From Dehalococcoidia bacterium (GTDB lineage Bacteria > Chloroflexota > Dehalococcoidia > Lucifugimonadales > UBA3495): a stretch of 52,636 nt of DNA. The translations under genes and the position numbers were made by a program. The stretch lies in NCBI GenBank assembly GCA_030740155.1, contig JASLXV010000037.1, positions 1 to 52,636 of the forward strand, read 5' to 3'. The notes under the pieces were generated by a model. That model searched no databases. It was not told the DNA's origin and saw only the letters and a program-made list of their open reading frames with translations. Of the stretch, positions 5,270 to 52,636 are shown in pieces; the first letter of the stretch is position 1; the number at the start of each line of letters is the position of its first letter.

Positions 5270-6540
5270 CAGCCAAAGACCTCCATGACCCGGTCGAGCC
5301 CTTTGACCAGTGCGTCGATCTCTTCTCTGGTGTTGTAGAAGGCCAGAGAGGCCCTGGAGGTGGCGGAGATTCCATACCGTTCCATCAAGGGCTGGGCGCA
5401 ATGATGGCCGGTGCGTACGGCGATGCCCTCCCGGTCCAAAATGGTGCCGATGTCGTGGGGGTGCACGCCGTCCATCACGAACGAGAGGATGCCGGACTTT
5501 TCCGGGGCGGTCCCAATGATCCGGACGGCAGAGAGACTGGAAAGGCACGCCGTCCCATACTCCAATAGTTCCCGCTCGTAGGCCGCGATCCGGTCTATCC
5601 CCAGGCTGTTGACGTAGTCGATGGCGGCTCCCAGGCCGATGCTTCCGGCAATGTTGGGGGTCCCCGCCTCGAACTTGTGGGGCAAGTCGCCGTATATCGT
5701 TTTCTCCATGGTGACAGACTTGATCATCTCGCCGCCGCCCTGGTACGGGGGCATCGCCTCCAGCAACTCGGCCTTGCCGTAAAGGATCCCGATCCCGGTG
5801 GGCCCGTAGAGCTTGTGGCCGGAAAAGACGTAGAAGTCGCAATCCAGGCCCCTAACGTCCACGGGACAATGGGGCACGGCCTGTGCGCCGTCCAGCAACA
5901 CCGGCACGCCGTGGCGGTGGGCCATCTCCACGATCTTCTTCACCGGATTGACGGTCCCCAGGGCGTTGGAGACGTGGGTGAGCGACACCAACTTGGTCCG
6001 AGGGCCCAGCAGCCGTTCGTACTCGTCGATTTGCAGCTCACCCGCATCGTTGACGGGAACCACCCGCAGGTGGGCGCCCCGCTCTTCGCACAAGAACTGC
6101 CACGGAACGATGTTGGAGTGGTGTTCCATCCGGGAGATGATTATCTCGTCGCCCGGCCCCACGTTTGCCCTGCCGAAGCATTGGGCCACCAGGTTGATCC
6201 CCTCGGTGGTCCCCCGCACGAAAATGATCTCCCGGTCCTCGGCGGCGTTGATGAACGCGCGGACCTTGCCGCGGGCCTCCTCGTAGTCATCGGTTGCCAG
6301 TTGGCTCAGGGTATGGACACCCCGGTGGACGTTGGAGTTGTTGGTGGTGTAGTACCGCACCAGGGCATCGATGACCGACTGCGGCTTTTGGCTGGTGGCG
6401 GCGTTGTCCAGGTACACCAGCGGCTTGCCGTTGACCTTTTGATCGAGGATCGGGAAGTCTTTTCTTATCTTGGCAACGTCAAACCGGGCCACGGAATTTT
6501 CCGCCACCCTCCCGTCAGATGAAAGGCTGCCGGCGGTCAT
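5269..6540 (-). CDS. sufS: Cysteine desulfurase SufS
   Basis: VYLDNAATSQKP, FSGHKLYGPTGIG (PLP Lys), RTGHHCAQPL. ATG6540 overlaps the sufD stop (ATGA). Confidence 0.95.
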   Translation of the reverse strand: MTAGSLSSDGRVAENSVARFDVAKIRKDFPILDQKVNGKPLVYLDNAATSQKPQSVIDALVRYYTTNNSNVHRGVHTLSQLATDDYEEARGKVRAFINAAEDREIIFVRGTTEGINLVAQCFGRANVGPGDEIIISRMEHHSNIVPWQFLCEERGAHLRVVPVNDAGELQIDEYERLLGPRTKLVSLTHVSNALGTVNPVKKIVEMAHRHGVPVLLDGAQAVPHCPVDVRGLDCDFYVFSGHKLYGPTGIGILYGKAELLEAMPPYQGGGEMIKSVTMEKTIYGDLPHKFEAGTPNIAGSIGLGAAIDYVNSLGIDRIAAYERELLEYGTACLSSLSAVRIIGTAPEKSGILSFVMDGVHPHDIGTILDREGIAVRTGHHCAQPLMERYGISATSRASLAFYNTREEIDALVKGLDRVMEVFG

Positions 6541-37856: not shown

Positions 37857-38474
37857 CTATTCCTCCAACTCTCTGGCCCGGGCCAGGTCTTGGGGGGTGT
37901 TGACGTTGAAAAAGCTCAGGAAGTACGGGTCTAAAGCTGCGACCTCTTTTTCGGGAAGGTAGGTGACCCGCACTTTTTCAAAGAACCTGGTGATTTTCCG
38001 GTCGTCGGCCAGGAGCCGTTCTTCCATGAATGGGAGACAGGTCTTGGAGTAGATCGCGTGGGTCGGCTCGGGCCACCCTCTCAACATTGGGACAACGGCG
38101 TCGGCCCCTTGCCGAAGGCAAAGCATGCGCCGCAGAAGGGCTAGGTTGAGAAACGGCATGTCGCAGGCGACGGCGATGCCCCATTGGTGCCGGGCCGCGG
38201 TCAGGCCGGTGAATATGCCCCCCAAAGCACCCCCGCCAGGGTATCGGTCCAAGGCGACCCGGTGCCCTTCTTCCAGGTGTAACGCGTCGGCCTGGGACTG
38301 TTCCGCCACCACCACCACAATTTCCTCGGTTACCTGGGAGATCCGGTCGATGACCCGGTGCGCCAGCGGCCGACCACCGATGTTCTCCAGCGCCTTAACA
38401 CGGCCCAAGCGCTGGCTCCGGCCCCCAGCAAGGACAATACCGGAAGCGTGAAAACTGCCGGGGTTTTTCTGCAT
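37857..38474 (-). CDS. mobA: Molybdenum cofactor guanylyltransferase
   Basis: IVLAGGRSQRLGRVKA, GALGGIFTGL, VACDMPFL, FFNVNTPQD; ATG38474 preferred. Confidence 0.88.
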   Translation of the reverse strand: MQKNPGSFHASGIVLAGGRSQRLGRVKALENIGGRPLAHRVIDRISQVTEEIVVVVAEQSQADALHLEEGHRVALDRYPGGGALGGIFTGLTAARHQWGIAVACDMPFLNLALLRRMLCLRQGADAVVPMLRGWPEPTHAIYSKTCLPFMEERLLADDRKITRFFEKVRVTYLPEKEVAALDPYFLSFFNVNTPQDLARARELEE

Positions 38475-38579
38475 TGTTTCGTCGCCGAAAGGGTTTTCGC
38501 GGCTGGGTTGAAAAAAGTATATCACAGCCATCCGTCACCCCCAAACCGGTTTGGAGGTCAGGCGCGGCCGCCCCCCAGC

Positions 38580-38613
38580 CCTTACCCTCGTTCCCTCTCC
38601 CACAGGAGAGGGA
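38580..38613. repeat. CCCTCTCCC...GGAGAGGG palindromic repeat
   Basis: CCTTACCCTCGTTCCCTCTCCCACAGGAGAGGGA with stem TCCCTCTCC/GGAGAGGGA. Confidence 0.6.
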
Positions 38614-38803
38614 TGCCCTGGCGCAGCCTGGGCCGGGAGGCCTGCGTCACTTTGGTGATCGACCACGCCTTGCAGCCCCTGCTTTAGCCTGGCCGAAAAC
38701 CGGCCGCTGTGGTACCGTTATTCTTGGCGCGCTTCGAGCGTGGGCAGAGAGGCGAACACGGGACCGGGCCTCCGGTCCAAGGGGAGGTCGTCTCAAGAGA
38801 CAA

Positions 38804-41800
38804 ATGGCGCAGAATCACCAATCCTCTCTACAGACCCTGGGAGACGCCGCCCGAGACTTGGCCGGCACCCTGAAGCTGCCCGCCCCGAGGGGCCAGGCGG
38901 AGCGCGAAGCCCTGTGCCTCGCCGCCCGGCGCGCCATTGAAGCGCCCCGTGAAGCGCCGGGCCTGGGAGAGGTGCAGCTCGCCTCCGACCAGTGGGAGAC
39001 CCAACGGGAAGGGTTGAGAAATTTATTGGCCGCCGGGTCCGGACTGTCCCTCCTTCATGACCGGCTCGGCCCGGTGCTCACCCCCGAAGCCTGGGACCGG
39101 GACCTGCTTCAGATCAGCCAAACCTTGGCCGTAAAGTCGGGGCAACGGCTGCGCTGGATATCTCCCGAATACTGGCGGGCCCGGCGGGCGGCGGCGAGTC
39201 TCGCCCGGGGCCGGTTCGCGTGGGTCGGCGGTACCCGCAACGATCTGGTCGACGCGGTACTGGAAGCCCAGCGGCATCAAGCCGTGATACGGCAGCATGA
39301 GGCTCTGGGACAACGGCTGTTCGGCTCCCGGTGGCAGGGCAAAGGGTCCGACTGGGAAGGACTCTCCCGGCTCACCGAGTGGGTTCAGGAGCTTTACCAG
39401 GACATCGGCGCTGGTAAAGTACCCAAGGGGATCCTGGATTTCTTGGCGGATAACCCCCCGGTAAGCCACCTGGACCCGCTGGTCCGGGCCGTGGAGGATG
39501 CCGACCGGACCCATGCTGGAACCGCCAGCGTCATCCGCGCCAGGCTGGAGGCCTCACGCCGAGAGCTGCTGGACCTGGGCCTGCGAAACCCGTTGCTGAA
39601 CTACCGGCTGCTGCGCACGCGGGGGTTGGAAACAGTGGACGAGTTGCCGTCCCAAGCGTACCGAGTCCTGGTGGAGGAAGGAAGGTCCGTGTCCTTTCTC
39701 CCGGTCGCCGAGGAAACGCCAGGCGAGAAACTCGGCCAGCCCGCCGAGGACGAGACCCCGGACCAGCCGGCGGCGCGGCGCACCGACACCCGATTACAGA
39801 CTGAACTGCCTTCCACGGAGCTTCAGGCCCGCCTCCTTTCCACCTACCACCTGGCCAACAGCTTCATCCAGGAACAAGGCGTCAACACGTTGTTCCTGGC
39901 CCTGGGCATGCTCACCTGGTACGAATCAGATGGCAGCCAGGAAGGCCGGCGCGCTCCCCTGGTGCTGGTCCCGGTGGCCCTCGACCGCTCCAGCGCGCGC
40001 CACCGCTTTCAGTTGCGCCACACCGGCGAGGACTCCGGCGAGAACCTGTCCCTGTTGGAGAAGGCCCGGACCGAGTTCGGGGTTACCCTGCCCGGCTTGC
40101 CGGACGCGGAAGACCTGAACATCGAGGGCTACTTCGACGCGGTTTCCGAATCCATGGTGGACCTGCCCAGATGGTCGTTGGACCGCAAGAGCGTGGTTCT
40201 GGGCTTCTTCTCCTTCAGCAAATTCTTGATGTACCGGGACCTGAACGTCGACAACTGGCCGGAGGGCGTCAAGCCCACCGAGCACCCAATCATGGGCGCT
40301 CTGCTGCACGACGGATTCGACGAGCCCCCGCCCGCCTTCAGCAGCGACGACAACCTGGACCAGTACCTTTCCCCCAGCGAAGTCCATCACGTGGTGGACG
40401 CCGACGGCTCCCAGACCCTGGCAATCTTCGATGTAACCAACGGCCGCAACCTGGTGGTCCAGGGCCCGCCGGGAACGGGAAAGTCCCAGACCATCACCAA
40501 TATGATCGCCGAAGCCATCGGACAGGGCCGGACCGCGCTCTTCGTCTCGGAGAAGATGGCGGCCTTGGAGGTGGTCAAGCGCCGGCTGGACAACGTGGGT
40601 CTGGGGGGCGCTTGTTTGGAGCTTCACAGCAACAAGACCGCGAAGAAAGCCGTCCTGGACGAACTCAAGAGGACGCTGGACCTGGGCCGGCCCAAGCTAG
40701 GGCATATAGAGCGAGACCTCGACGCCCTGGGACAGCTAAGGCAACGCCTGAACGACTATTGCGACGCCGTAAACGCGCCCCTGGCAGAGAGCGGGGTCAG
40801 CCCCTACCGGGCTTACGGGGAGCTGCTCTTGCTTCGGCTGGCCAACCAGGACACGCCCCTGCCCAAGCTGGACCTTCCGGCCATGCAATCGTGGACCGAC
40901 CTGGATTTCAGGCGTAAAGAAGGCATCGCCGATGAGCTGCAGGCCAGGCTTGCCGCGATGGGGGTCCCCCAGAACCACCCATTCTGGGGGAGCCGTCTCA
41001 AGGTGCTGCTACCGACCGAGCAGGACCGTCTTCGGGAGCTGCTCCCGGAGGCGCAACAGTCCCTGGCCGGGCTCCGGGACGCCATTGCCGCCCTGGCCGA
41101 CGCCATGGGCCTGTCCGAGGCGGCCGGCCCGGCGGAAGCCCAGGCTTATTGCCTCGCCGCCCGGAAGACCATGGCCGCGCCGGACCTGCGGGGGGCCGAC
41201 CTCCGGTCCGAAGAGTGGCTAACCAGGCGGGGAGAATTGGAAGACCTGCTAGCGGCCGGTTCGGCGCTGGCCGGGCTGCACCAGGAATATGACGGGGTCC
41301 TCATCGCCGGCGCGTGGGGCCAGGACTTGCTCGACGTCCGGCAGACGCTGGAGATCAAGGGGCGCCAGCTGTTGTCCTTCGTTTCCGGGGACTACCGGAG
41401 GGCCAGAAACAGGCTCAGGGGCCTCTGCCGGGCCAAACTACCCCAAGGCATCGATGCCCAAGTGCGGATGGCCGACGCGGTGCTGGAAGCCCAGCGGCTG
41501 CTGGCTGTGCTACACCGGCACGAGTCCCTGGGCGAGAGGCTTTTCGCGCCCCGCTGGCGGGGCGAGGACTCGGACTGGCCGGGCCTGACTGTCCTGGCCG
41601 GCTGGCTCCAGGACCTGTACGACGCCATCGACTTCGGCGAGGTCCCAGAGGAAATAATCGATTTCTTGGCCGAGAACCCTTCGGCGATTGACTTGAAATT
41701 GTACCTCACGCCGGTCGATAGCGCCGGGCACCTCCACGCCCGGAACTGCGGCCGCATCATTGAAGTCCTGGATATGGACGTGGCCCGGCGTTTCGGGTCC

Positions 41801-44248
41801 GGTGAGGGGCTTGAAGACCAGCCCTTTGATGTCCAAGAATCGGCGTTGGCGGCGTGGATCGAGAGAATGAACGATGTCCACGACGTGCTGAGCTTCAACA
41901 ACATCGCGGATACCTGTCGAAACGAGGCTATGGACCCGGTACGAGCCGCCGCCGAGTCGTGGCCTCAGGCGGCAACCCACCTAGTGGATGCCCTCCGGCA
42001 GGCGTGGTTCGAGAGTATATTGGAAGGTGCGCTTCGGGAGCGGGAAGCGCTGTCAGGATTCGACGGGAGCAGCCACCGGCAAGTCCTCCAACGGTTCCGG
42101 GACCTGGACACCCTGGTGCTGCAACACAACCGGGCCCGCCTGGCTCAATCCCACTGGGACCGGCTGCCTCGCCAAGAAGGGGGCGGGCAGATCGGCGGGC
42201 TGCGGCGTCAGTTCGAGTTGCGGCGGAGGCACCTGCCGATCCGGCAACTAATGGAGCGGGCCGGCAACGCGGTCCAGGCGATCAAGCCCGTATTCATGAT
42301 GAGCCCCCTCTCCATTGCCACCTACATCGCGCCGGGCAGTCTGAAATTCGACGTGGTTATCTTCGATGAGGCCAGCCAGGTGAAACCGGTCGACGCCTTC
42401 GGCGCCGTTTTCCGCGCCGATCAAGCTGTCGTCGTGGGGGACAGCAAGCAGCTTCCGCCGACCAATTTCTTCGACTCCATGGCCCAGGACCGGGACGACG
42501 ACGACGAGGAGAACACGACCGCCAACATCGAGAGCGTACTGGGCTTGTTCGCAGCCCAGGGCGCGCCCGACCGGATGTTGCGATGGCACTATCGCAGCCG
42601 CCACGAGTCGCTGATCGCCGTTTCGAACCGGGAGTTCTACGACAGCAGCCTGGTGGTCTTCCCGAGCCCCGACGCGGCCCGCCAGGATCTGGGGCTGCAA
42701 TACCGCCATCTTCCCGATGCGGTGTACGACAGGGGGCACAGCAGGACAAACCAGCTGGAGGCGGAAGAGGTGGCGCGGGCCGTGATGCACCACGCCCGGA
42801 CCCGCCCGGGCCTGACCCTCGGCGTGGCCGCCTTCAGCTCGGCCCAGATGCGGGCAGTCCAGGACCAACTGGAGCTGCTCCGGCGGCAGGACCCCTCCGG
42901 CGAGGGGTTCTTCACGGCCCATCCCGACGAGCCGTTCTTCGTCAAGAACCTGGAGACGGTGCAAGGCGACGAGCGAGACGTCATTTTCATCAGCATCGGG
43001 TACGGGCGCGCCGCTGACGGGACCACCGACATGAACTTTGGGCCGCTGAACCGGGACGGCGGGGAGCGCCGGCTGAACGTGCTGATCACCAGGGCCAAAC
43101 AGCGCTGCGAAGTGTTCACCAACCTGACGGCGGAGGACATCGACCTGGGCCGCACCAACGCCCAGGGGGTACGGGCGCTGAAGACGTTCCTGGCCTACGC
43201 CGCGGCCGGAGCAGAAACCACGACCGAGGAGTCTGACGACGCGGCTGATTCGCCTTTCGAGGAGGCCGTGGCTCTGGCCTTGGCCGGGCTCGGACACGAG
43301 GCGCACCACCGGGTCGGTTCTTCCGGGTGCTTCGTCGACCTTGCGGTGATCGACGCCGAGCGACCGGGCCGCTACCTGTTGGGAATCCAGTGCGATGGAC
43401 CAGCTTACAACATATCGCGGTCCGCCAGGGACCGGGACCGCCTGCGGGAGCATGTGCTCCGGGGCCTGGGCTGGCGCCTGCATCACATCTGGAGCACCGA
43501 TTGGTTCCGGAACCAGGAACGGGAGCTACAGAGGGCCGCGCTGGCCATCGAACAGGCCAAGACCCGTGGAACCGCCAAGCAGCAGCCGGAGCCGGAGCTA
43601 GAAACGGAACCGGACCAGGGCTCATCGGTGGACCGGGCCGACACCGTCCAAGAGGAAATGGCCGGGGACCACGCCCGGGAATACCTGCTGGCCCATCCGG
43701 AGATCAACGCCGAAGGTCAGGAGTTCGTCGTCCTCGACGACGCTACTCTGGAGTTACTGGTAGCCGAGGTCGTGGAGGTGGAAAGCCCGGTGCACGTGAG
43801 CGAGGTAGCGCGGCGCATCGCCGGCGGAACCGGGGTCAGGCGCAGGCGAGGCTACCAAGAAGCCATTGACCGGGCAATTGAGCAAGCGGTGACATCGGAG
43901 CAGGTGCGCCGGCAAGGGGAGTTCTTGTGGTGGGCCGGCATGGAGGAACCGGTCTTGCGGGACCGCGGCAAGCTGCCGGCGCCCTCTCGAAAGCTGGAGT
44001 TGATCGCGCCCGAAGAGATCGCTCTGGCCATTGGCCTGGCCGTCACTGGGTCCTACGGAATCAGCCAAGATGAGGCCGCGGTGGCCGCCGCACGGCTCCT
44101 CGGGTTCAGCCGGGTTACCGCCGGGATGCGCAACACGCTCGATCCCGTCATCCGCCAGATGGTCAGAGACGAAAGACTTGTACGGCAGGGCAACCAACTA
44201 GTATTGGCTGACCAAGAGGACCGCCAAGAGCCGCCGGTTGCCAGCTAG
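38804..44248 (+). CDS. DUF4011 - SF1 helicase - Vsr-like nuclease - DUF3320 protein (Hhe-type anti-phage architecture)
   Basis: LLDLGLRNPLLNYR (DUF4011), QGPPGTGKSQT, FDEASQ, GDSKQLPP, HYRSR, VQGDERD, RRLNVLITRA, SPFEEAV...RDRDRLR..L..LGW, VVEVESPVH. ATG38804 preferred over TTG38474. Confidence 0.88.
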   Translation: MAQNHQSSLQTLGDAARDLAGTLKLPAPRGQAEREALCLAARRAIEAPREAPGLGEVQLASDQWETQREGLRNLLAAGSGLSLLHDRLGPVLTPEAWDRDLLQISQTLAVKSGQRLRWISPEYWRARRAAASLARGRFAWVGGTRNDLVDAVLEAQRHQAVIRQHEALGQRLFGSRWQGKGSDWEGLSRLTEWVQELYQDIGAGKVPKGILDFLADNPPVSHLDPLVRAVEDADRTHAGTASVIRARLEASRRELLDLGLRNPLLNYRLLRTRGLETVDELPSQAYRVLVEEGRSVSFLPVAEETPGEKLGQPAEDETPDQPAARRTDTRLQTELPSTELQARLLSTYHLANSFIQEQGVNTLFLALGMLTWYESDGSQEGRRAPLVLVPVALDRSSARHRFQLRHTGEDSGENLSLLEKARTEFGVTLPGLPDAEDLNIEGYFDAVSESMVDLPRWSLDRKSVVLGFFSFSKFLMYRDLNVDNWPEGVKPTEHPIMGALLHDGFDEPPPAFSSDDNLDQYLSPSEVHHVVDADGSQTLAIFDVTNGRNLVVQGPPGTGKSQTITNMIAEAIGQGRTALFVSEKMAALEVVKRRLDNVGLGGACLELHSNKTAKKAVLDELKRTLDLGRPKLGHIERDLDALGQLRQRLNDYCDAVNAPLAESGVSPYRAYGELLLLRLANQDTPLPKLDLPAMQSWTDLDFRRKEGIADELQARLAAMGVPQNHPFWGSRLKVLLPTEQDRLRELLPEAQQSLAGLRDAIAALADAMGLSEAAGPAEAQAYCLAARKTMAAPDLRGADLRSEEWLTRRGELEDLLAAGSALAGLHQEYDGVLIAGAWGQDLLDVRQTLEIKGRQLLSFVSGDYRRARNRLRGLCRAKLPQGIDAQVRMADAVLEAQRLLAVLHRHESLGERLFAPRWRGEDSDWPGLTVLAGWLQDLYDAIDFGEVPEEIIDFLAENPSAIDLKLYLTPVDSAGHLHARNCGRIIEVLDMDVARRFGSGEGLEDQPFDVQESALAAWIERMNDVHDVLSFNNIADTCRNEAMDPVRAAAESWPQAATHLVDALRQAWFESILEGALREREALSGFDGSSHRQVLQRFRDLDTLVLQHNRARLAQSHWDRLPRQEGGGQIGGLRRQFELRRRHLPIRQLMERAGNAVQAIKPVFMMSPLSIATYIAPGSLKFDVVIFDEASQVKPVDAFGAVFRADQAVVVGDSKQLPPTNFFDSMAQDRDDDDEENTTANIESVLGLFAAQGAPDRMLRWHYRSRHESLIAVSNREFYDSSLVVFPSPDAARQDLGLQYRHLPDAVYDRGHSRTNQLEAEEVARAVMHHARTRPGLTLGVAAFSSAQMRAVQDQLELLRRQDPSGEGFFTAHPDEPFFVKNLETVQGDERDVIFISIGYGRAADGTTDMNFGPLNRDGGERRLNVLITRAKQRCEVFTNLTAEDIDLGRTNAQGVRALKTFLAYAAAGAETTTEESDDAADSPFEEAVALALAGLGHEAHHRVGSSGCFVDLAVIDAERPGRYLLGIQCDGPAYNISRSARDRDRLREHVLRGLGWRLHHIWSTDWFRNQERELQRAALAIEQAKTRGTAKQQPEPELETEPDQGSSVDRADTVQEEMAGDHAREYLLAHPEINAEGQEFVVLDDATLELLVAEVVEVESPVHVSEVARRIAGGTGVRRRRGYQEAIDRAIEQAVTSEQVRRQGEFLWWAGMEEPVLRDRGKLPAPSRKLELIAPEEIALAIGLAVTGSYGISQDEAAVAAARLLGFSRVTAGMRNTLDPVIRQMVRDERLVRQGNQLVLADQEDRQEPPVAS

Positions 44249-46266: not shown

Positions 46267-47232
46267 TCAGGCGGGAACCAGCCGAGGCACGGCCGCAGTG
46301 CACCAGTGAAGGTACTTGGGATTTCGTCCCGCGACGATCTCGAAGTACATCTCCTGCAGCCGTTTGGAAATGGGGCCCGTTTTGCCATCGGCGATCGGCC
46401 GGTGGTCCAACTCCACGACCGGAGTCAGGTGGGCGGCGGTGCCGGTCAGGAAGACTTCTTCGGCGAGGTAGAGTTCGCTGCGGTTGATGCTTCGCTCCGC
46501 CACCTTCAATCCCAACTCGCTCTGGGCTAACTGGATCACCGTGTCGCGGGTGATCCCGGGCAGCGCGTTGTCCTCCGGTGTCGGCGTGACCAGAGAGCCG
46601 CCAGAGACCATGAAGATGTTCTCCCCTGAGCCCTCGCAGACGTGGCCGCTATTGTTCAGAATGATTGCCTCGTCGAACCCGGCCAGGGTCGCCTCGGTCT
46701 TGGCCAGGATGCTGTTGACGTAGAGCCCGCAGTTCTTTATCCGCGCGGGTATCATGGGATCGTCCACCCGGCGCCAGGAGGAGGTGCAGCACCGGAGCAC
46801 GTCGGACCCCAGGTAGTTTCCGAATGGAACCGTGATGAGGGTGAAATCGCTCGCCAGGTCCTGGAGCTTCAGATTGGCCACCATTTCGGCGCTCTTATAG
46901 GCCAGGGGGCGAATGTAGATGTCTTGCTGATGGCCGTTGCGCTCTACCAGGTCGACCGTGAGATCGCACAGTTCGTCCACCGTGTGGGGAATATCCAGCA
47001 TCATAATGCGGCACCCGCGCAGGAGCCGCTCGTAGTGCTCCCGCAGGCGGAAGATGTAGACCGCCCCTTTTTCCTGGTTCCAGTTGCCGCGGATGCCCTC
47101 GAACACTCCGGTGCCGTAATGGAGCGCATGGGTCATCACGCTGACCCGGGCCTTACTGGCGGGGACGAACTTCCCCTTGAAATAGGTAAGTAGCTCGCCA
47201 TTGCCACCAGAAGCAGGTTCCGAGGTGCCCAC
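46267..47232 (-). CDS. ilvE: Branched-chain amino acid aminotransferase
   Basis: THALHYGTGVFEGIRG, YIRP, K..GLYVNS, EGSGENIF, LPGITR, FLTGTAA. Confidence 0.93.
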   Translation of the reverse strand: MGTSEPASGGNGELLTYFKGKFVPASKARVSVMTHALHYGTGVFEGIRGNWNQEKGAVYIFRLREHYERLLRGCRIMMLDIPHTVDELCDLTVDLVERNGHQQDIYIRPLAYKSAEMVANLKLQDLASDFTLITVPFGNYLGSDVLRCCTSSWRRVDDPMIPARIKNCGLYVNSILAKTEATLAGFDEAIILNNSGHVCEGSGENIFMVSGGSLVTPTPEDNALPGITRDTVIQLAQSELGLKVAERSINRSELYLAEEVFLTGTAAHLTPVVELDHRPIADGKTGPISKRLQEMYFEIVAGRNPKYLHWCTAAVPRLVPA

Positions 47233-47304
47233 GGCACGCCCCCTTTCGTTACAGACTGGGCTAGATTATAATCGGACTCCCATTACGAATACAAGGGATT
47301 GACC

Positions 47305-47813
47305 ATGGATGGAACGAGCCCAGCTCCCCGGTCGAACCTCTCGATCATCGTTGCGGCAGTCCTGGCTTCCCTGGCCACCGCCGTGGTACTCGGTGCGGTA
47401 CTCCTCTTCGTCCGCCGGGACGACAACGCCCCCATCCAGGTAGTACTTCCGGCCACCGCCGTAGCCGAGCCCGCAACCAATCCTCAGACCGCCGCATCGG
47501 GCGAGGCCGGCCGGGCGCAGGGGGAGGTCCGGGTCTACGTAACCGGGGCCGTGAGCCGCCCCGGGGTATACACCCTGGCGCCGGATGACCGGGTGGAAGA
47601 CGCCATCGCGGCGGCCGGCGGAGCCAACGCCGACGCGGAACTCACAGGGCTAAATCAGGCCGGCCGGGTCCGGGACGAGGAGCATTATCACGTCCCCAGA
47701 CTGGGCGAGATTCCGCCCACGGCGACTGTCTCCGCCGAGAACCAAGCCAACACCTCGGACTCCTCCGCGACGGGCGGTGGCCTGATCGACCTGAACGCCG
47801 CCTCGGCGGAGTT
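47305..47813 (+). pseudogene. comEA: ComEA competence DNA-binding protein, 5' part; interrupted at the start of the HhH domain
   Basis: N-terminal TM, SLBB domain VYVTGAVSRPGVYTL...RVEDAIAAAGG...LNQA..VRD...VP, then LIDLNAASAE. Homology ends there and the frame runs on into element DNA to a stop at 47868. Confidence 0.85.
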
Positions 47814-47815
47814 TA

Positions 47816-49324
47816 CTATAAGGTATATAAAGCTAATAGAGGCCGACAGATTGGCAGCCAATCGATAGCAACTTCACGCTCCGTGATGATTACTCGGTCA
47901 ACCAGAGGCTCCAGAATTTCCCGCCAGCCTTCATCGTCTAGGTCATCCCATTCGATGTCGTCCAGAATTGAGAATAGTCCATCATACTCGGCCCGTGGCA
48001 CGGCTGCTACTTGGGACAAGGAAACCTCTATTTTGCGAAGTTCGGCCATCAGTTGATCCCTGCGGACTATGTATCGCCCCGGAGGGATTAGTCCGTCCAG
48101 CAAAGCGTTCTCTAGGGAGATCAGGCGCTCTTCTTGCTGCTGTTTCCGCTCCAAGAGAGATTCACGGGCCTGATATTGCCCTTGGTGCTCTTTGTCGATT
48201 ATTTCGGCAGCGACTTCTTTAGCCCTTTTCCGCACATCTGTCATTTTTGGGGGCTCTAATAGCTTCTTCATGTTGGCCTTCACCTGGGGTTCAAGCTTCA
48301 GTCCCGAGATGGACGGCTGGTTGCAATCGAGGCGCCCAACACGCCGGGAGCATATATATTGAACCCACCGATGGGCGGTCTTTTTCCCCACCATTGGCCG
48401 GTTACACTTGCCGCAACGCAGCAGTCCGCTCAGAAGGAATTGTGGATGGGGGCCTCCTCTACGCCGATGCCTATTGGTGATAAGTCGGTCGTGTACCTGC
48501 TGGAACGTCGCATCATCTACTAGAGCGGGGTGCAACCCTTCAGCCTCAAAGGGTTCACTCGGGGCTGCGAAGCGCGAGCGAGCTTGGAGTCCGTACACCA
48601 CCTGACCCACATAGGCGCGGTTACGCAGGATTTGCCTCACTCCCTGACGAGAGAACTTGTGGCCCTTTTCAGCCAAGCACATCGTCAGTTCCCCCAGAGA
48701 TGTCCTGCCAATCGCGTACTGCCTGAACAGCTTCTCCACTGCTGGTGCATCCGAGTTGGGTACCAGCACCGACCCTTTGCCATCTGGAGCCTTTCCCAGG
48801 TCGTAGCCGAACGGGGCCTGGCCATTCCACTTCCCATCCCTGGCTCTAGCTCGCTTGTTAGGGATTACCCTGAAGCTGAGCCTCCTGCTCTCTTCCTCCC
48901 CCAGCAGTCCGAATAACCCTTGTACAAAGGGGTTATCAGTGGGCTCGGTGGCGCTGTGGATATCAACACCCAGGCGGCGCATAGCCTTGAGGGCATAGAA
49001 GTAATCAGCGGTGTCTCTCCCCAGTCTGTCCATCCGCCAAACTACAATGGTGTCGAACCGCCCCTCTTGAGCGGCCTTGAGTACCTTCTGGTATTCCGGC
49101 CGGTCACTGTTGAGGCCAGACTCTGCTTCGACATATTGGGCGACCTCGACGAAGCCCTTGGTTTCACAGAACCGTTGGCAGTCCCGAAGTTGGGTATCCA
49201 GAGACGCACCTTCCCGCTCCTGCCGGTCCGTAGACACTCGGCAGTAAATAGCGGCCCGAACTCCCCCGGTAAAGGCACCATTGATTGCCTTGGGGGTTTC
49301 AATTATTTGTAGTATCGTGTTCAC
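47816..49324 (-). CDS. Large serine recombinase (integrase)
   Basis: AIYCRVSTDRQ (catalytic Ser), DRPEY, VWRMDRLGR, GQAPFGY recombinase domain, LSGLLRCGKC...YIC...C zinc ribbon, coiled coil. Confidence 0.94.
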   Translation of the reverse strand: MNTILQIIETPKAINGAFTGGVRAAIYCRVSTDRQEREGASLDTQLRDCQRFCETKGFVEVAQYVEAESGLNSDRPEYQKVLKAAQEGRFDTIVVWRMDRLGRDTADYFYALKAMRRLGVDIHSATEPTDNPFVQGLFGLLGEEESRRLSFRVIPNKRARARDGKWNGQAPFGYDLGKAPDGKGSVLVPNSDAPAVEKLFRQYAIGRTSLGELTMCLAEKGHKFSRQGVRQILRNRAYVGQVVYGLQARSRFAAPSEPFEAEGLHPALVDDATFQQVHDRLITNRHRRRGGPHPQFLLSGLLRCGKCNRPMVGKKTAHRWVQYICSRRVGRLDCNQPSISGLKLEPQVKANMKKLLEPPKMTDVRKRAKEVAAEIIDKEHQGQYQARESLLERKQQQEERLISLENALLDGLIPPGRYIVRRDQLMAELRKIEVSLSQVAAVPRAEYDGLFSILDDIEWDDLDDEGWREILEPLVDRVIITEREVAIDWLPICRPLLALYTL

Positions 49325-49342
49325 CTCAAGCTTCGGAACCGG

Positions 49343-49558
49343 CTAGGTCGCCGAAGAATTGCTGTCGCCCCGGCCCTTCTGGCTGTTGCCAGGGTTCCCC
49401 ATAAGCCTCTCCACCTCGCGCCTGGGCCACCTCAGCCTGCCGCCTACCCCAACCTGTACTGCATACGCGAGCCCCTTCTTATGCCACTTCCAGAGGGTCA
49501 GAGGGCTAACCCTGAGCAGTGTGGCTGCTTCTTTAGTGGTCAATATTTGATTCTTCAT
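49343..49558 (-). CDS. Excisionase-like (MerR-type HTH) DNA-binding protein
   Basis: ILTTKEAATLLRVSPLTLWKWHKKG...GGRLRWPRREVERL; GGAG SD before ATG49558. Confidence 0.8.
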   Translation of the reverse strand: MKNQILTTKEAATLLRVSPLTLWKWHKKGLAYAVQVGVGGRLRWPRREVERLMGNPGNSQKGRGDSNSSAT

Positions 49559-49592
49559 AATGAACGCTCCATGATCTGAGTTTGAAATGGGT

Positions 49593-50123
49593 TTAGACCT
49601 CTTGCCCAAGGACGAACTTGGAATCGTCATCAAAGAACGCCTCGCACCTCTTCTTCGTCATTTTGTAGCTCGTGCTGCCAAAGAAATGGTTCTTTAATGT
49701 TCCGATCAGATCCCTGTAACCTGACTTGTCGTAATCCGCGAACAGACGAGGCACGCTTAGGTCAATGACGTCGGTCCTGTAGAGGAATGACCTCCTGCAT
49801 TCAGGACGGGGACTAGATTGAGGCCCAATAGATATTCCGTAGAATCTATCGGTGACCGGATTCCTAAAATAATCAGCCACTAATTCCTCCTTGCCGTCGT
49901 GGCGAATTTTTGTCGAGGTAGCTCGTTTGTATATCTCTTCCGCTTCCACAGCGTGTCCACCTTCAAATCTCTTGTTATCGTACATGTAAAAGAACCAGTC
50001 AGGGTCGGCGAAGATCACCTGGGGAAGTGTCTTACCCCGGTGTTTTTTGAAGCCTAATGGCGTCCAACCCATCGCTAAGACCCGGCCCTGGTCAGACTGG
50101 TGTGAATGTGGAGTTTCCTGCAT
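49593..50123 (-). CDS. Hypothetical protein with an N-terminal FxKHxGxxLxQ...DPDW motif
   Basis: 176 aa with GAGGAG SD; co-oriented with the HTH and integrase genes. Confidence 0.65.
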   Translation of the reverse strand: MQETPHSHQSDQGRVLAMGWTPLGFKKHRGKTLPQVIFADPDWFFYMYDNKRFEGGHAVEAEEIYKRATSTKIRHDGKEELVADYFRNPVTDRFYGISIGPQSSPRPECRRSFLYRTDVIDLSVPRLFADYDKSGYRDLIGTLKNHFFGSTSYKMTKKRCEAFFDDDSKFVLGQEV

Positions 50124-50870
50124 TCCGAATTCTCCTCAACCGGACGATGTCGAAGCCCGGTACTGTATAATCAGTTATCGTGTCCTACTATCTATTATAT
50201 AACGTATTCAGTTCTACGCAAAGCGATTACTGCACAAAATATGCAATTGGCAAACCCGAGGAAGTGGTCATAGCAGCCACGGAAGGATTCAGGGCACTTG
50301 CTAACTACAACGGAGAATTCGGCAGAGTAGCAAGCGTGGACGGCGTAGCAGTAGGCGACAGGTTTCAGGTTTCCCGTTTTACCTATATAGGGTAGAAACT
50401 AGAAACGGGAATACGCCAGGATGGAGCGGTGGTGTCATCGTGGTAAATGAACGGGGATTAAGGGGGCCGTGTCCCCTACCCCCGAAACGCAGGTCCCCTT
50501 AATGGGGATGGCCCTCTTAACCGATATCACACGGCACGTTTATGCCTGGTGTTTCTAAATCCCCGTCATGCTCGGCAACCTGGTCGAGGGGACGAGTCGT
50601 GACCATATGGGCTGAGATAGTTCCCAACAGTCAATCTGCAGGGCAGGTGCGATTAAGAGGGCCATCTACTGTTCGAGAGAGGCTAAGTCAACAACGGGAG
50701 CAGCACAATGTTACCTTCAACTTGAGATCATCCGTTCTGCCGGCTCCCTGCTCTAAGCCCCTTCCCCAGGCTCCGGCGCCCAAGCGATCTATTGTTCTCG
50801 GCGGTACATCCCCCTCATAATGGCGTTTGGCGACGTATTCTCTTTAAGCCGCATTTTTTGGAGTTTTCTC

Positions 50871-51476
50871 ATGAGCCCGCGATCTTCAACCGTTCACCAC
50901 TTCGAGGTGGCTCTGCAGGAGGTAGAATCTAGAGTATGGCGAGGGATTCAGGTTCCCAGCGATTACAGCTTCTGGGATTTACACGTTGCCATCCAAGACG
51001 CGATGGGATGGCTTGACTACCATCTCCACGAGTTTGAGATTGCTAGTCCTACTACTGGGGAACTTGAGCGCATCGGGATTCCAATTGATGATTTTGATGA
51101 CGAGCAACCAGCTCTGCCTAGCTGGGAGGTGCAAATCTCTGACTACTTTTCCTCCGAGAATGCGTCAGCAACATATACCTACGACTTTGGTGACAATTGG
51201 CAACACACCGTCACGCTAAAGGAAGTAGTGGAGCGGATTCCAAGGATGAAGTACCCACGGTGTGTTGCAGGGAAGCGGGCGTGTCCTCCCGAAGATTGCG
51301 GTGGAGAGTCGGGCTATGAGGGGTTTCTGGATGCTATCCAGAATCCGCAGCATGAAGAACACGACAGAATGCTGGAATGGGTTGGCGGGAGCTTCGACCC
51401 GGAGGCATTCGACGCCAAGAGCGTCCACTTTGACGATCCGGGCGAGAGATGGAGAATCGCCTTCCGGGAAGGGTAA
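50871..51476 (+). CDS. Plasmid pRiA4b ORF3-like family protein
   Basis: VWRGIQVP, LHVAIQDAMGWLDYHLHEF, YTYDFGDNWQH, GKRACPPEDCGG, FDPEAFD motifs. Confidence 0.9.
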   Translation: MSPRSSTVHHFEVALQEVESRVWRGIQVPSDYSFWDLHVAIQDAMGWLDYHLHEFEIASPTTGELERIGIPIDDFDDEQPALPSWEVQISDYFSSENASATYTYDFGDNWQHTVTLKEVVERIPRMKYPRCVAGKRACPPEDCGGESGYEGFLDAIQNPQHEEHDRMLEWVGGSFDPEAFDAKSVHFDDPGERWRIAFREG

Positions 51477-51635
51477 CTGGCAGCTCACCCACCGTTGCCA
51501 TATCATCGGGTTAGCCGAAATGGGGAATCTCGGTTTATATGTCATCCCTGAATGTGGAGGCAGTCAGCTTCCAATAAACCCGTCTGGCTTAAACCTGGGG
51601 ACGTTGGAAGATTCACCTTCGAAGGAGTAAAAGTA

Positions 51636-51743
51636 ATGGGTGATAAGGGTGGTAAAAAGGATAAAGCCAAAAAGGAAAAACAGACAGCCGCAAAACATAC
51701 GCTAAAGGAAAAACGCAAAGTGAAAAAAGAGAAGCAGATTTAG
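51636..51743 (+). CDS. Small Lys-rich basic protein (35 aa)
   Basis: MGDKGGKKDKAKKEKQTAAKHTLKEKRKVKKEKQI with an AAGGAG SD 8 nt upstream. Confidence 0.6.
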   Translation: MGDKGGKKDKAKKEKQTAAKHTLKEKRKVKKEKQI

Positions 51744-51822
51744 GGCGCTTTCACCATGCGAAAGAAGAAGCGAGTTTGCTCACTCCGTTCCTCAGCAGCC
51801 GTGGCCTTGCATCGTCGAGAGA

Positions 51823-52636
51823 TGTCAAGGGCGCTGGGAAAGTGTACCAGGGGGGCGGAGCAAAACTGTACCACTGAACGCCGCAGCATGAGCATGGAAG
51901 TGTCGTGGTCTGCTGAAGCTTGGTTCTAGGCTATCGCCTGATCTCGGTTAGTCTTCCTGCTGTGTTTGAGGCGGTAGCTGTCCCCGTTCATCTCCAGGAT
52001 GTCGACATGGTGGGTGAGGCGGTCGAGGAGGGCTCCGGTCAGCCGCTCGGACCCAAAGATCTCGGTCCACTCGTCGAAGGGCAGGTTGGAGGTCACGAGA
52101 ACCGATCCTCGCTCGTAGCGCTGGCTAAACACCTCGAAGAGCAACTCGGCCCCAATCTTGGATAAGGGCACGAAGCCCAGTTCGTCAACGATCAGGAGCT
52201 TGAGACGTGCCAGCCTTCTCTGGAGGTTGAGCAGACGCCGTTCGTCCCTGGCCTCGATCAGCTCGTGGACCAGGGCGGCAGCGGTAGTGAAGCCAACGGA
52301 CAGTCCTCTCTGGCATGCGGCAAGACCGAGACCGAGGGCGACATGGGTCTTGCCGGTTCCGCTGTTGCCGAGCGCGATGACGTTGTGGTTGCGCTCGATA
52401 TACTCGCATCGAGCCAGCTCCAGCACCAGGGCCTTGTTGAGGGATGGCATCGATAGGAAGTCGAAGGTGTCGAGGCTCTTGGTAGTTGGGAAGCGGGCCT
52501 CTTTGATCCGCCGGTCCACCATGCGATGATGACGGTCGATCAGTTCCAGCTCCGATAGGCGCAATAAATAGTCCGGATGGTCAGCCCCCTCGACGGCGCA
52601 CTGGGTAGCCAGCTTGCCGTACTCCCTCAGGAACGT
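51823..52636 (-). mobile_element. IS21-family insertion sequence, right end; runs off the window
   Basis: Terminus TGTCAAGGGCG at 51823 with iterated AAA(G/C)TGTACCA boxes (51839-51849, 51863-51873), next to the istB stop. Confidence 0.88.
51926..52636 (-). CDS. istB: IS21 helper ATPase IstB, 5'-partial
   Basis: ARFP..KSLDTFDF, GNSGTGKTH, LIVDELGF, TSNLPFDEW, LLDRLTHH, GDSYR. The frame is open upstream of TTG52564 to the window edge. Confidence 0.95.
   Translation of the reverse strand, partial: TFLREYGKLATQCAVEGADHPDYLLRLSELELIDRHHRMVDRRIKEARFPTTKSLDTFDFLSMPSLNKALVLELARCEYIERNHNVIALGNSGTGKTHVALGLGLAACQRGLSVGFTTAAALVHELIEARDERRLLNLQRRLARLKLLIVDELGFVPLSKIGAELLFEVFSQRYERGSVLVTSNLPFDEWTEIFGSERLTGALLDRLTHHVDILEMNGDSYRLKHSRKTNRDQAIA

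Follow-up and report, generated by a model that had tools for sequence, protein, structure and literature searches.

The analysed window, 52,636 nucleotides long, is the entire contig C37 of the 3.6-Mb, 108-contig genome G000 (94% complete, 7.65% contamination). Towards its right end it carries the 5' part of a comEA gene (47305..47804, + strand), divergent from ilvE in the host flank (46267..47232, - strand; NCBIfam PRK06606/ilvE_I over cut-off), which adjoins comEA in 17 of 29 relative loci. From its start at 47305 the comEA frame encodes a membrane anchor, seen as a hydrophobic segment at the N-terminus (KD19 2.65 from residue 14), an SLBB domain (residues 76-126 in a profile search), a linker and the first HhH residues; the same search found no HhH domain of comEA in the window. 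The SLBB domain is presumably the oligomerisation domain of Bacillus ComEA. At the end of this host DNA the GC content changes from 0.635 (1-47804) to 0.53 (47805-51850), and an element-derived tail (47805..47868, + strand), antisense to the 3' end of an integrase gene, closes the truncated frame at 187 amino acids. An earlier note on this DNA, which had recognised a serine-integrase element inside comEA, placed the junction at about 47812-47814 and read the residues IDLNAASAE as wholly comEA. Metagenome contigs with an empty site (see below) put the junction at 47804/47805, about 8 nt further left, and assign to the element the GGCGGAG at 47805-47811 that had been read as Ala-Glu. In two of these contigs (L062, L065) the intact gene reads IDLNAASVDLLDTLPGIG at the junction, and comEA of a congener (G001) reads IDLNAASVD at the same place.

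The leftmost gene of the element (47816..49324, - strand) encodes a large serine recombinase of 502 amino acids in an intact frame, with PF00239, PF07508 and PF13408 all over cut-off. With its Resolvase, Recombinase and Zn-ribbon domains combined in a single chain, a protein of this size matches the large serine recombinase architecture (400-650 amino acids). S31, which we take to be the catalytic serine, and the DRLGR motif are invariant in the integrase alignment (A1), and seven of the eight other members of the integrase cluster (n=9) are 99.2-99.8% identical, the remaining one being a 57-aa member without alignment. Against phage proteins the best identity among the matches listed is 25-27%, and viral contigs reach at most 40% over short segments. 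Next to the integrase lies a 71-aa excisionase-like HTH gene (49343..49558, - strand; PF12728, HTH_17, over cut-off), a candidate directionality factor, whose product scores 25.6 bits against TIGR01764, under the cut-off of 28.8, and matches phrog_66 with an E-value of 1.8e-10. It is followed by a hypothetical gene (49593..50123, - strand) without Pfam or PHROG match, for which an ExoX-like C-terminal family serves as a lead only (12% of one Atlas cluster), by a pRiA4b ORF-3-like cargo gene (50820..51476, + strand; PF07929, E 6e-65) and by a small lysine-rich ORF (51552..51743, + strand) without family match. The stretch around this last ORF (51504-51809) is 79-87% identical to several family genomes. 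An IS21-family istB, cut by the contig end (51926..52636, - strand), has a summed depth above 600 in all four metagenome runs compared below and accounts for the assembly gap. The element thus measures at least 5.2 kb; its middle is not in the assembly, and a genome-wide search gave no contig-end overlaps and no further istB, cargo or excisionase copy. The assembled 5.2 kb contain no virion or packaging genes by Pfam and PHROG, the unassembled middle lying outside this count, and conjugation genes are likewise absent from the assembled part.

The earlier note had predicted that the missing 3' half of comEA would lie at the far boundary of the element. A six-frame motif scan of the genome located it on contig C105, directly before comEC. 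The first 400 bp or so of C105 are low in GC (0.485) and form the right element end (C105:1-402), after which a frame reading SASVDLLDTLPGIG runs to a stop at 580 with an HHH_3 domain at 395-562; comEC follows (C105:646-3108; 820 aa; DUF4131, Competence and Lactamase_B domains). No promoter-like site on the + strand was found in C105:1-700, and the two sites that were found point into the element. A strong sigma-70-like site at 219-191 of C105 (L001; - strand, 10/12, extended -10) faces the element and, within it, a reading frame that the contig start truncates. A HhH-only frame of 69 amino acids, without the anchor, could be read from a TTG at C105:371.

The two junctions have 7 bp in common, CCGCCTC (47798..47804 in the window, C105:396-402 at the other end), and the core is the TC at 47803-47804. 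With this dinucleotide as centre, the two element arms are mirror images at 17 of 25 positions, the best of 28 registers, all others giving at most 10/25. Symmetry of this degree was reached at 15 of 200,000 random genomic sites, a genome null of 7.5e-5 per site. The host arms are symmetric at 8 of 25 positions. The TT at 47812-47813, proposed earlier as core dinucleotide, gives 9/25 and is absent from C105. attL and attR therefore display the features of serine-integrase att sites, a short shared core with arms inversely symmetric about a dinucleotide. The earlier observation that the element-side arm overlaps the end of the integrase gene holds: the P' arm of the left junction (47805..47829) includes the stop codon (47816-47818), 11 nt from the core, as well as the last integrase codons, and the integrase ORF remains whole in the integrated state despite this overlap. 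The best other att-like site in the genome scores 27/36 and lies within an unrelated ORF, and the element arms have no match in viral contigs. We also considered whether the element arm mimics the comEA consensus of 28 relatives. Over the first 7 nt it agrees at 3.5 positions versus 2.9 for the host arm, over 15 nt at 4.4 versus 7.6, and mimicry is thus unsupported.

A 29-nt host-side pattern matched four metagenome contigs. Three of them (L062, L064, L065) have an empty site in which C37 joins C105 at 99.0-100% identity, the comEA 5' part of the window being 99.0-99.9% identical to their left part. In all three, C37 sequence gives way to C105 sequence at the shared 7 bp, which places attB inside comEA as the earlier note had proposed, and two of them (L062, L065) encode a 225-aa ComEA with SLBB and HHH_3 domains. 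The fourth contig, L063, repeats the split junction and bears the same assembly prefix as the empty L064. There are few flanking SNPs, and none separates empty from filled alleles across the four contigs and G000. It is highly improbable, given these contigs, that the split is an assembly artefact or that comEA is naturally short. Such a reading could draw on the position of the two junctions on different contigs, on the 7.65% contamination of the genome and on the unequal depth of cargo and integrase described below, with variants possibly mixed in the contig beyond about 49600. Against it, L063 and a single contig of run X6 (record 27, 47077-47983) bridge the junction independently, ruling out the chimera that the earlier note had named as a possible refutation, and the empty-site contigs connect C37 to C105. 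A gene naturally ending here, another caveat of the note, is ruled out by the relatives, which keep the HhH domain. Both junctions, the core, the empty allele, its coexistence with the split one and the intact genes on the element establish a real serine-integrase insertion in comEA.

Among the matches listed, 20 of 22 sequencing runs (12 marine studies, 2017-2025) contain at least 0.65 (0.65-0.96) of the words of 46300-49300, a query stretch that is half host and half integrase, and runs X21 and X22 contain next to none. Four of the 20 runs (X1, X3, X6, X13) were compared at the level of contigs, where uncovered parts do not signify absence. In both X1 and X3, position 47804 is the exact end of the host contig; the following contig starts at 47775, and across 47804 the depth passes from 18.9 to 6.45 in X1 and from 15.7 to 7.21 in X3. 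This pattern is a fork in the assembly graph right behind the core, and its other branch, judging from the empty-site contigs, should be the empty allele. In X13 the integrase contigs have a depth of 4.7-7.4 as against at least 30 summed over host DNA, and no piece across the junction is among the matches listed. Contig depth is not the share of cells, so that these values speak for coexistence rather than for an allele frequency, and rare excision may still take place. Both alleles coexist in ocean samples. The cargo region (~50025-51850) has a host-like depth in all four runs (16.6, 10.2, 13 and 27), which exceeds the integrase depth two- to fivefold. In the same comparison diverged contigs cover the excisionase region. 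L063 differs from the window at 2 positions in the integrase and at 37 over the next 440 bp (49354-49793). Sister elements with common cargo and other integrases and sites would explain both the cargo depth and the divergence of L063; mixing of variants in the contig beyond ~49600 would explain them equally well.

The coexistence of the two alleles also bears on the suggestion of the earlier note that the element may act as a reversible switch. In such a system, of the active-lysogeny type, conditional excision would rebuild comEA-comEC and with it uptake, possibly followed by re-integration, and the empty alleles in the samples would be excision products. Several observations are compatible with this: restoration is precise and in frame, with a full protein in the empty-site contigs; the integrase and the excisionase-like gene are intact; both alleles occur in the same runs, with no flanking SNP setting them apart; and the element persists over the 12 studies. 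Coexisting empty alleles are explained just as well by lineages that never carried the element. An excised circle (attP join) was found in none of the contigs of the four runs, which drop rare forms, and a contig break at 47798, the join expected of an abundant circle, was seen in none of X1, X3 and X6, which counts against a switch within the same limit on rare forms. The empty form moreover seems to make up at least half of the signal in X1, X3 and X13, excessive for a transient state, a close integrase occurs in only one of 202 other family genomes and there at another gene, and the element looks mosaic and IS-laden rather than domesticated (37 versus 2 differences in L063). We accordingly regard a regulated switch as doubtful. 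In its full form it would be a reversible, excision-controlled uptake switch in an abundant uncultured marine lineage of Dehalococcoidia (probably the SAR202 group), acting at comEA and by polarity on comEC, with on and off states side by side and uptake proceeding without a recognisable pilus ATPase; this too we hold to be quite unlikely.

The gene hit by the element belongs to the true competence genes; it is split at a defined position, and elsewhere it is whole, as the 225-aa SLBB and HHH_3 protein followed by comEC. comEA is contiguous in all 29 relative loci, with comEC adjoining in 24, and a comEA query matches in 188 of 203 family genomes, some of the matches being to a Tex-like HhH only. 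The insertion site is spanned in all 148 family rows other than the two of G000 among the matches listed (150 of 290). Splits of comEA across the family were considered and rejected: none of 15 re-searched low scorers is broken at the insertion codon, several of them giving only long Tex-like HhH matches or partial matches. Frameshifts or stops in comEA of L020, L030 and L014 (G001, G003 and G013) are pseudogenes or sequencing errors. Besides comEC (820 aa, three domains), G000 has dprA and comM. At C73:523-1879 and at C107:5910-6365 and 5324-5431, comM is represented by a near-complete copy that lies at the end of a contig, by an extra 3' half, 90% identical, which begins at the CPCG motif behind unrelated DNA, and by another copy of the comM tail, 111 nt long, that flanks two small genes; these copies point to successive insertions at comM or to a mixture of strains. 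A PF00437 pilus ATPase over cut-off was found neither in G000, at 94% completeness, nor in its congener, and it is absent over cut-off from 17 of 24 family genomes and present in seven. Across the family, comEA and comEC are thus widely kept, with the pilus ATPase in 7 of 24 genomes only. Competence is unproven because no PF00437 ATPase was found, and DNA uptake in the host may be pilus-independent or absent.

Close homologues of the integrase are few (84, 63, 57 and 41% identity), and among these four only the 57% homologue has genomic context; the 84% homologue (P0002) comes without it. The 57% homologue (L066/L226) belongs to the same family, where it occurs in one of 202 other genomes. Directly after its stop codon comes the 3' half of a NarL/LuxR-type regulator; the orthologues of this gene are read through in 18 of 22 loci. 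The 5' half of this regulator was not found by DNA search, protein search or within 68 kb, so that the regulator as target rests on one junction. G000 itself has a NarL-type regulator with a 1-nt frameshift (C67 ~27237; L241:838), no more than about 5 nt from the position at which, in G003, the 57% homologue adjoins the orthologous gene; this frameshift is an element scar, a mutation or an assembly error. Three more distant integrases (L034, L035, L293; 31-38%) abut truncated major-head-protein-like genes (phrog_212, 5' fragments), which suggests elements that insert into a capsid-like gene. The expectation of the earlier note that close homologues would abut split comEA genes was not borne out: none of the eight most closely related loci with DNA has a comEA match. 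At a greater distance, 160 loci have no comEA at the integrase; the two comEA HMM matches among them lie 4.5 and 6.5 kb away, one of them being a Tex-like gene. A genome-contig scan with the single integrase protein returned no match, and one with the integrase alignment returned at least 80 loci. In a sample of the class, distant large serine recombinases occur in 116 of 401 genomes, with a comEA neighbour in none of the 29 non-self loci returned; in a sample of the order, 3 of 401 genomes including G000 have a match. Integrase representatives without genomic context (n=150) have 34-43% identity in the top nine. With no homologue locus in which comEA adjoins, comEA as a target of the whole clade is rejected on present data. 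Members of the clade appear to change their target gene, and what they have in common is their arrangement, in which the att site lies at the 3' end of the integrase gene.

Given that homologous integrases are found at other genes, comEA may have been hit by chance. On such an account the clade moves from one conserved host gene to another, the present integrase allele fits comEA by accident, uptake is irrelevant to the success of the element and the host may not be transformable at all. The regulator abutting the 57% homologue, the capsid-like genes beside the 31-38% integrases, the lack of comEA at the integrase in 160 distant loci, the intact site in the 148 non-G000 family rows among the matches listed and the missing pilus ATPase all favour it. 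Set against these are the comEA matches in 188 of 203 family genomes, the presence of comEC, dprA and comM in G000, where comM too has traces of insertion, and a reported enrichment of competence genes among the targets of large serine recombinases (in the available parts of Durrant et al., PMC10083194); the closest test, the context of the 84% homologue, is absent. Taken together, we consider an incidental site unlikely, if still a serious alternative.

We favour the interpretation, with a probability of roughly 0.6, that the element is a polymorphic island blocking DNA uptake in its carriers. The integrase would recombine attP, whose near-mirror arms flank a TC core, with an attB in comEA located at the Ser codon with which the HhH domain begins, bringing in an element of at least 5.2 kb. 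After integration, what remains of ComEA would be an SLBB stump that is anchored in the membrane and lacks the DNA-binding domain, and the HhH half together with comEC would be parted from the comEA promoter, with a probable polar effect on comEC expression. In the accessible text of a study of Bacillus, uptake needs membrane-bound ComEA with both its oligomerisation and its DNA-binding domains (PMC9747964). Carriers would consequently take up little DNA, and low uptake would in turn benefit the island by shielding it from removal through transformation with the empty allele. Excision is likely possible, as integrase and excisionase-like gene are intact, and the two proteins probably reverse the reaction precisely, as in most such elements. 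The element would then be a polymorphism, present in some members of a widespread marine population and missing from others, rather than a fixed developmental switch. Three observations tell against a blocking island: the missing PF00437 ATPase, the homologous integrases at other genes, and the depth of the cargo, which is close to that of host DNA while the integrase reaches a third of it or less, a difference for which one element alone does not account.

The disruption of DNA-uptake genes by mobile elements is well known; comEA as their target seems to be new. The integration targets given in the available part of a 2025 review (PMC12378983) are comYC, comC, comGA, pilB, pilQ, comFA, comEC, comM, ssbB, comK and RNAs; comEA is absent from them and appears in that part only as target of an sRNA and of ComI. 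The same part reads targeted integration as a defence against chromosome curing, and an excerpt of PMC11472951 covers comM islands. The elements in the review's available part (the comEC island of S. pneumoniae, prophages in comFA, comYC, comGA, pilQ and ssbB, and comM islands) resemble ours in their site-specific insertion into an uptake gene, within-species polymorphism and plausible role as a shield against curing; they differ in that here the target is comEA, the host is an uncultured marine Dehalococcoidia and the assembled part has no phage or conjugation genes. The sections of Durrant et al. seen here name competence as the most enriched pathway among targets of large serine recombinases (PMC10083194). 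ComEA, HHH, SLBB, PF12836, PF10531 and PF00633 do not occur in the retrieved text or in eight supplement files, where targets given only as sequence would escape. Our integrase shares with those described there the Resolvase, Recombinase and Zn-ribbon architecture of about 500 amino acids, the short shared core and an attP more symmetric than attB (17 versus 8 of 25), but in contrast to the competence-targeting ones its relatives strike different genes and not one conserved target.

As in the active lysogeny of the Listeria prophage phi10403S in comK, outlined in passages of PMC7397523 and PMC8987985, precise excision would rebuild a competence gene; unlike there, prophage genes, condition-linked excision and a circle were not seen in our data, and empty alleles are common. 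The ssrA islands of Dehalococcoides with DsiB, as far as the available sections of PMC3146451 describe them, are also serine-integrase islands from the same bacterial class, with an att site overlapping the 3' end of the integrase gene. They lie in ssrA instead of comEA, a second small recombinase and a six-gene module have no counterpart in the assembled part of our element, and the integrase stop codon here is clearly element-encoded. In Streptococcus constellatus subsp. pharyngis an insertion within comEA was linked by the authors to absent competence (a passage in PMC3897883). There, too, comEA is truncated by an insertion, but that passage names no integrase, element or att site. In the literature, mostly outside subscription papers, we found no report of a large serine recombinase element in comEA.

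With this locus, comEA joins the competence genes split by serine-integrase elements, and the conflict between such elements and transformation, mostly studied in pathogens, extends to an uncultured marine lineage. Public metagenomes from many studies allow split and intact comEA alleles to be counted there, and the locus provides a full, naturally validated set of integrase, attB and attP from a little-sampled clade. If excision were regulated, it would amount to a gene-restoring switch in a lineage for which the literature found describes none. Elsewhere in the window, positions 38474-44248 hold a gene for a 1924-aa protein with DUF4011, AAA helicase and MTES_1575 nuclease domains, which is possibly defence-related.
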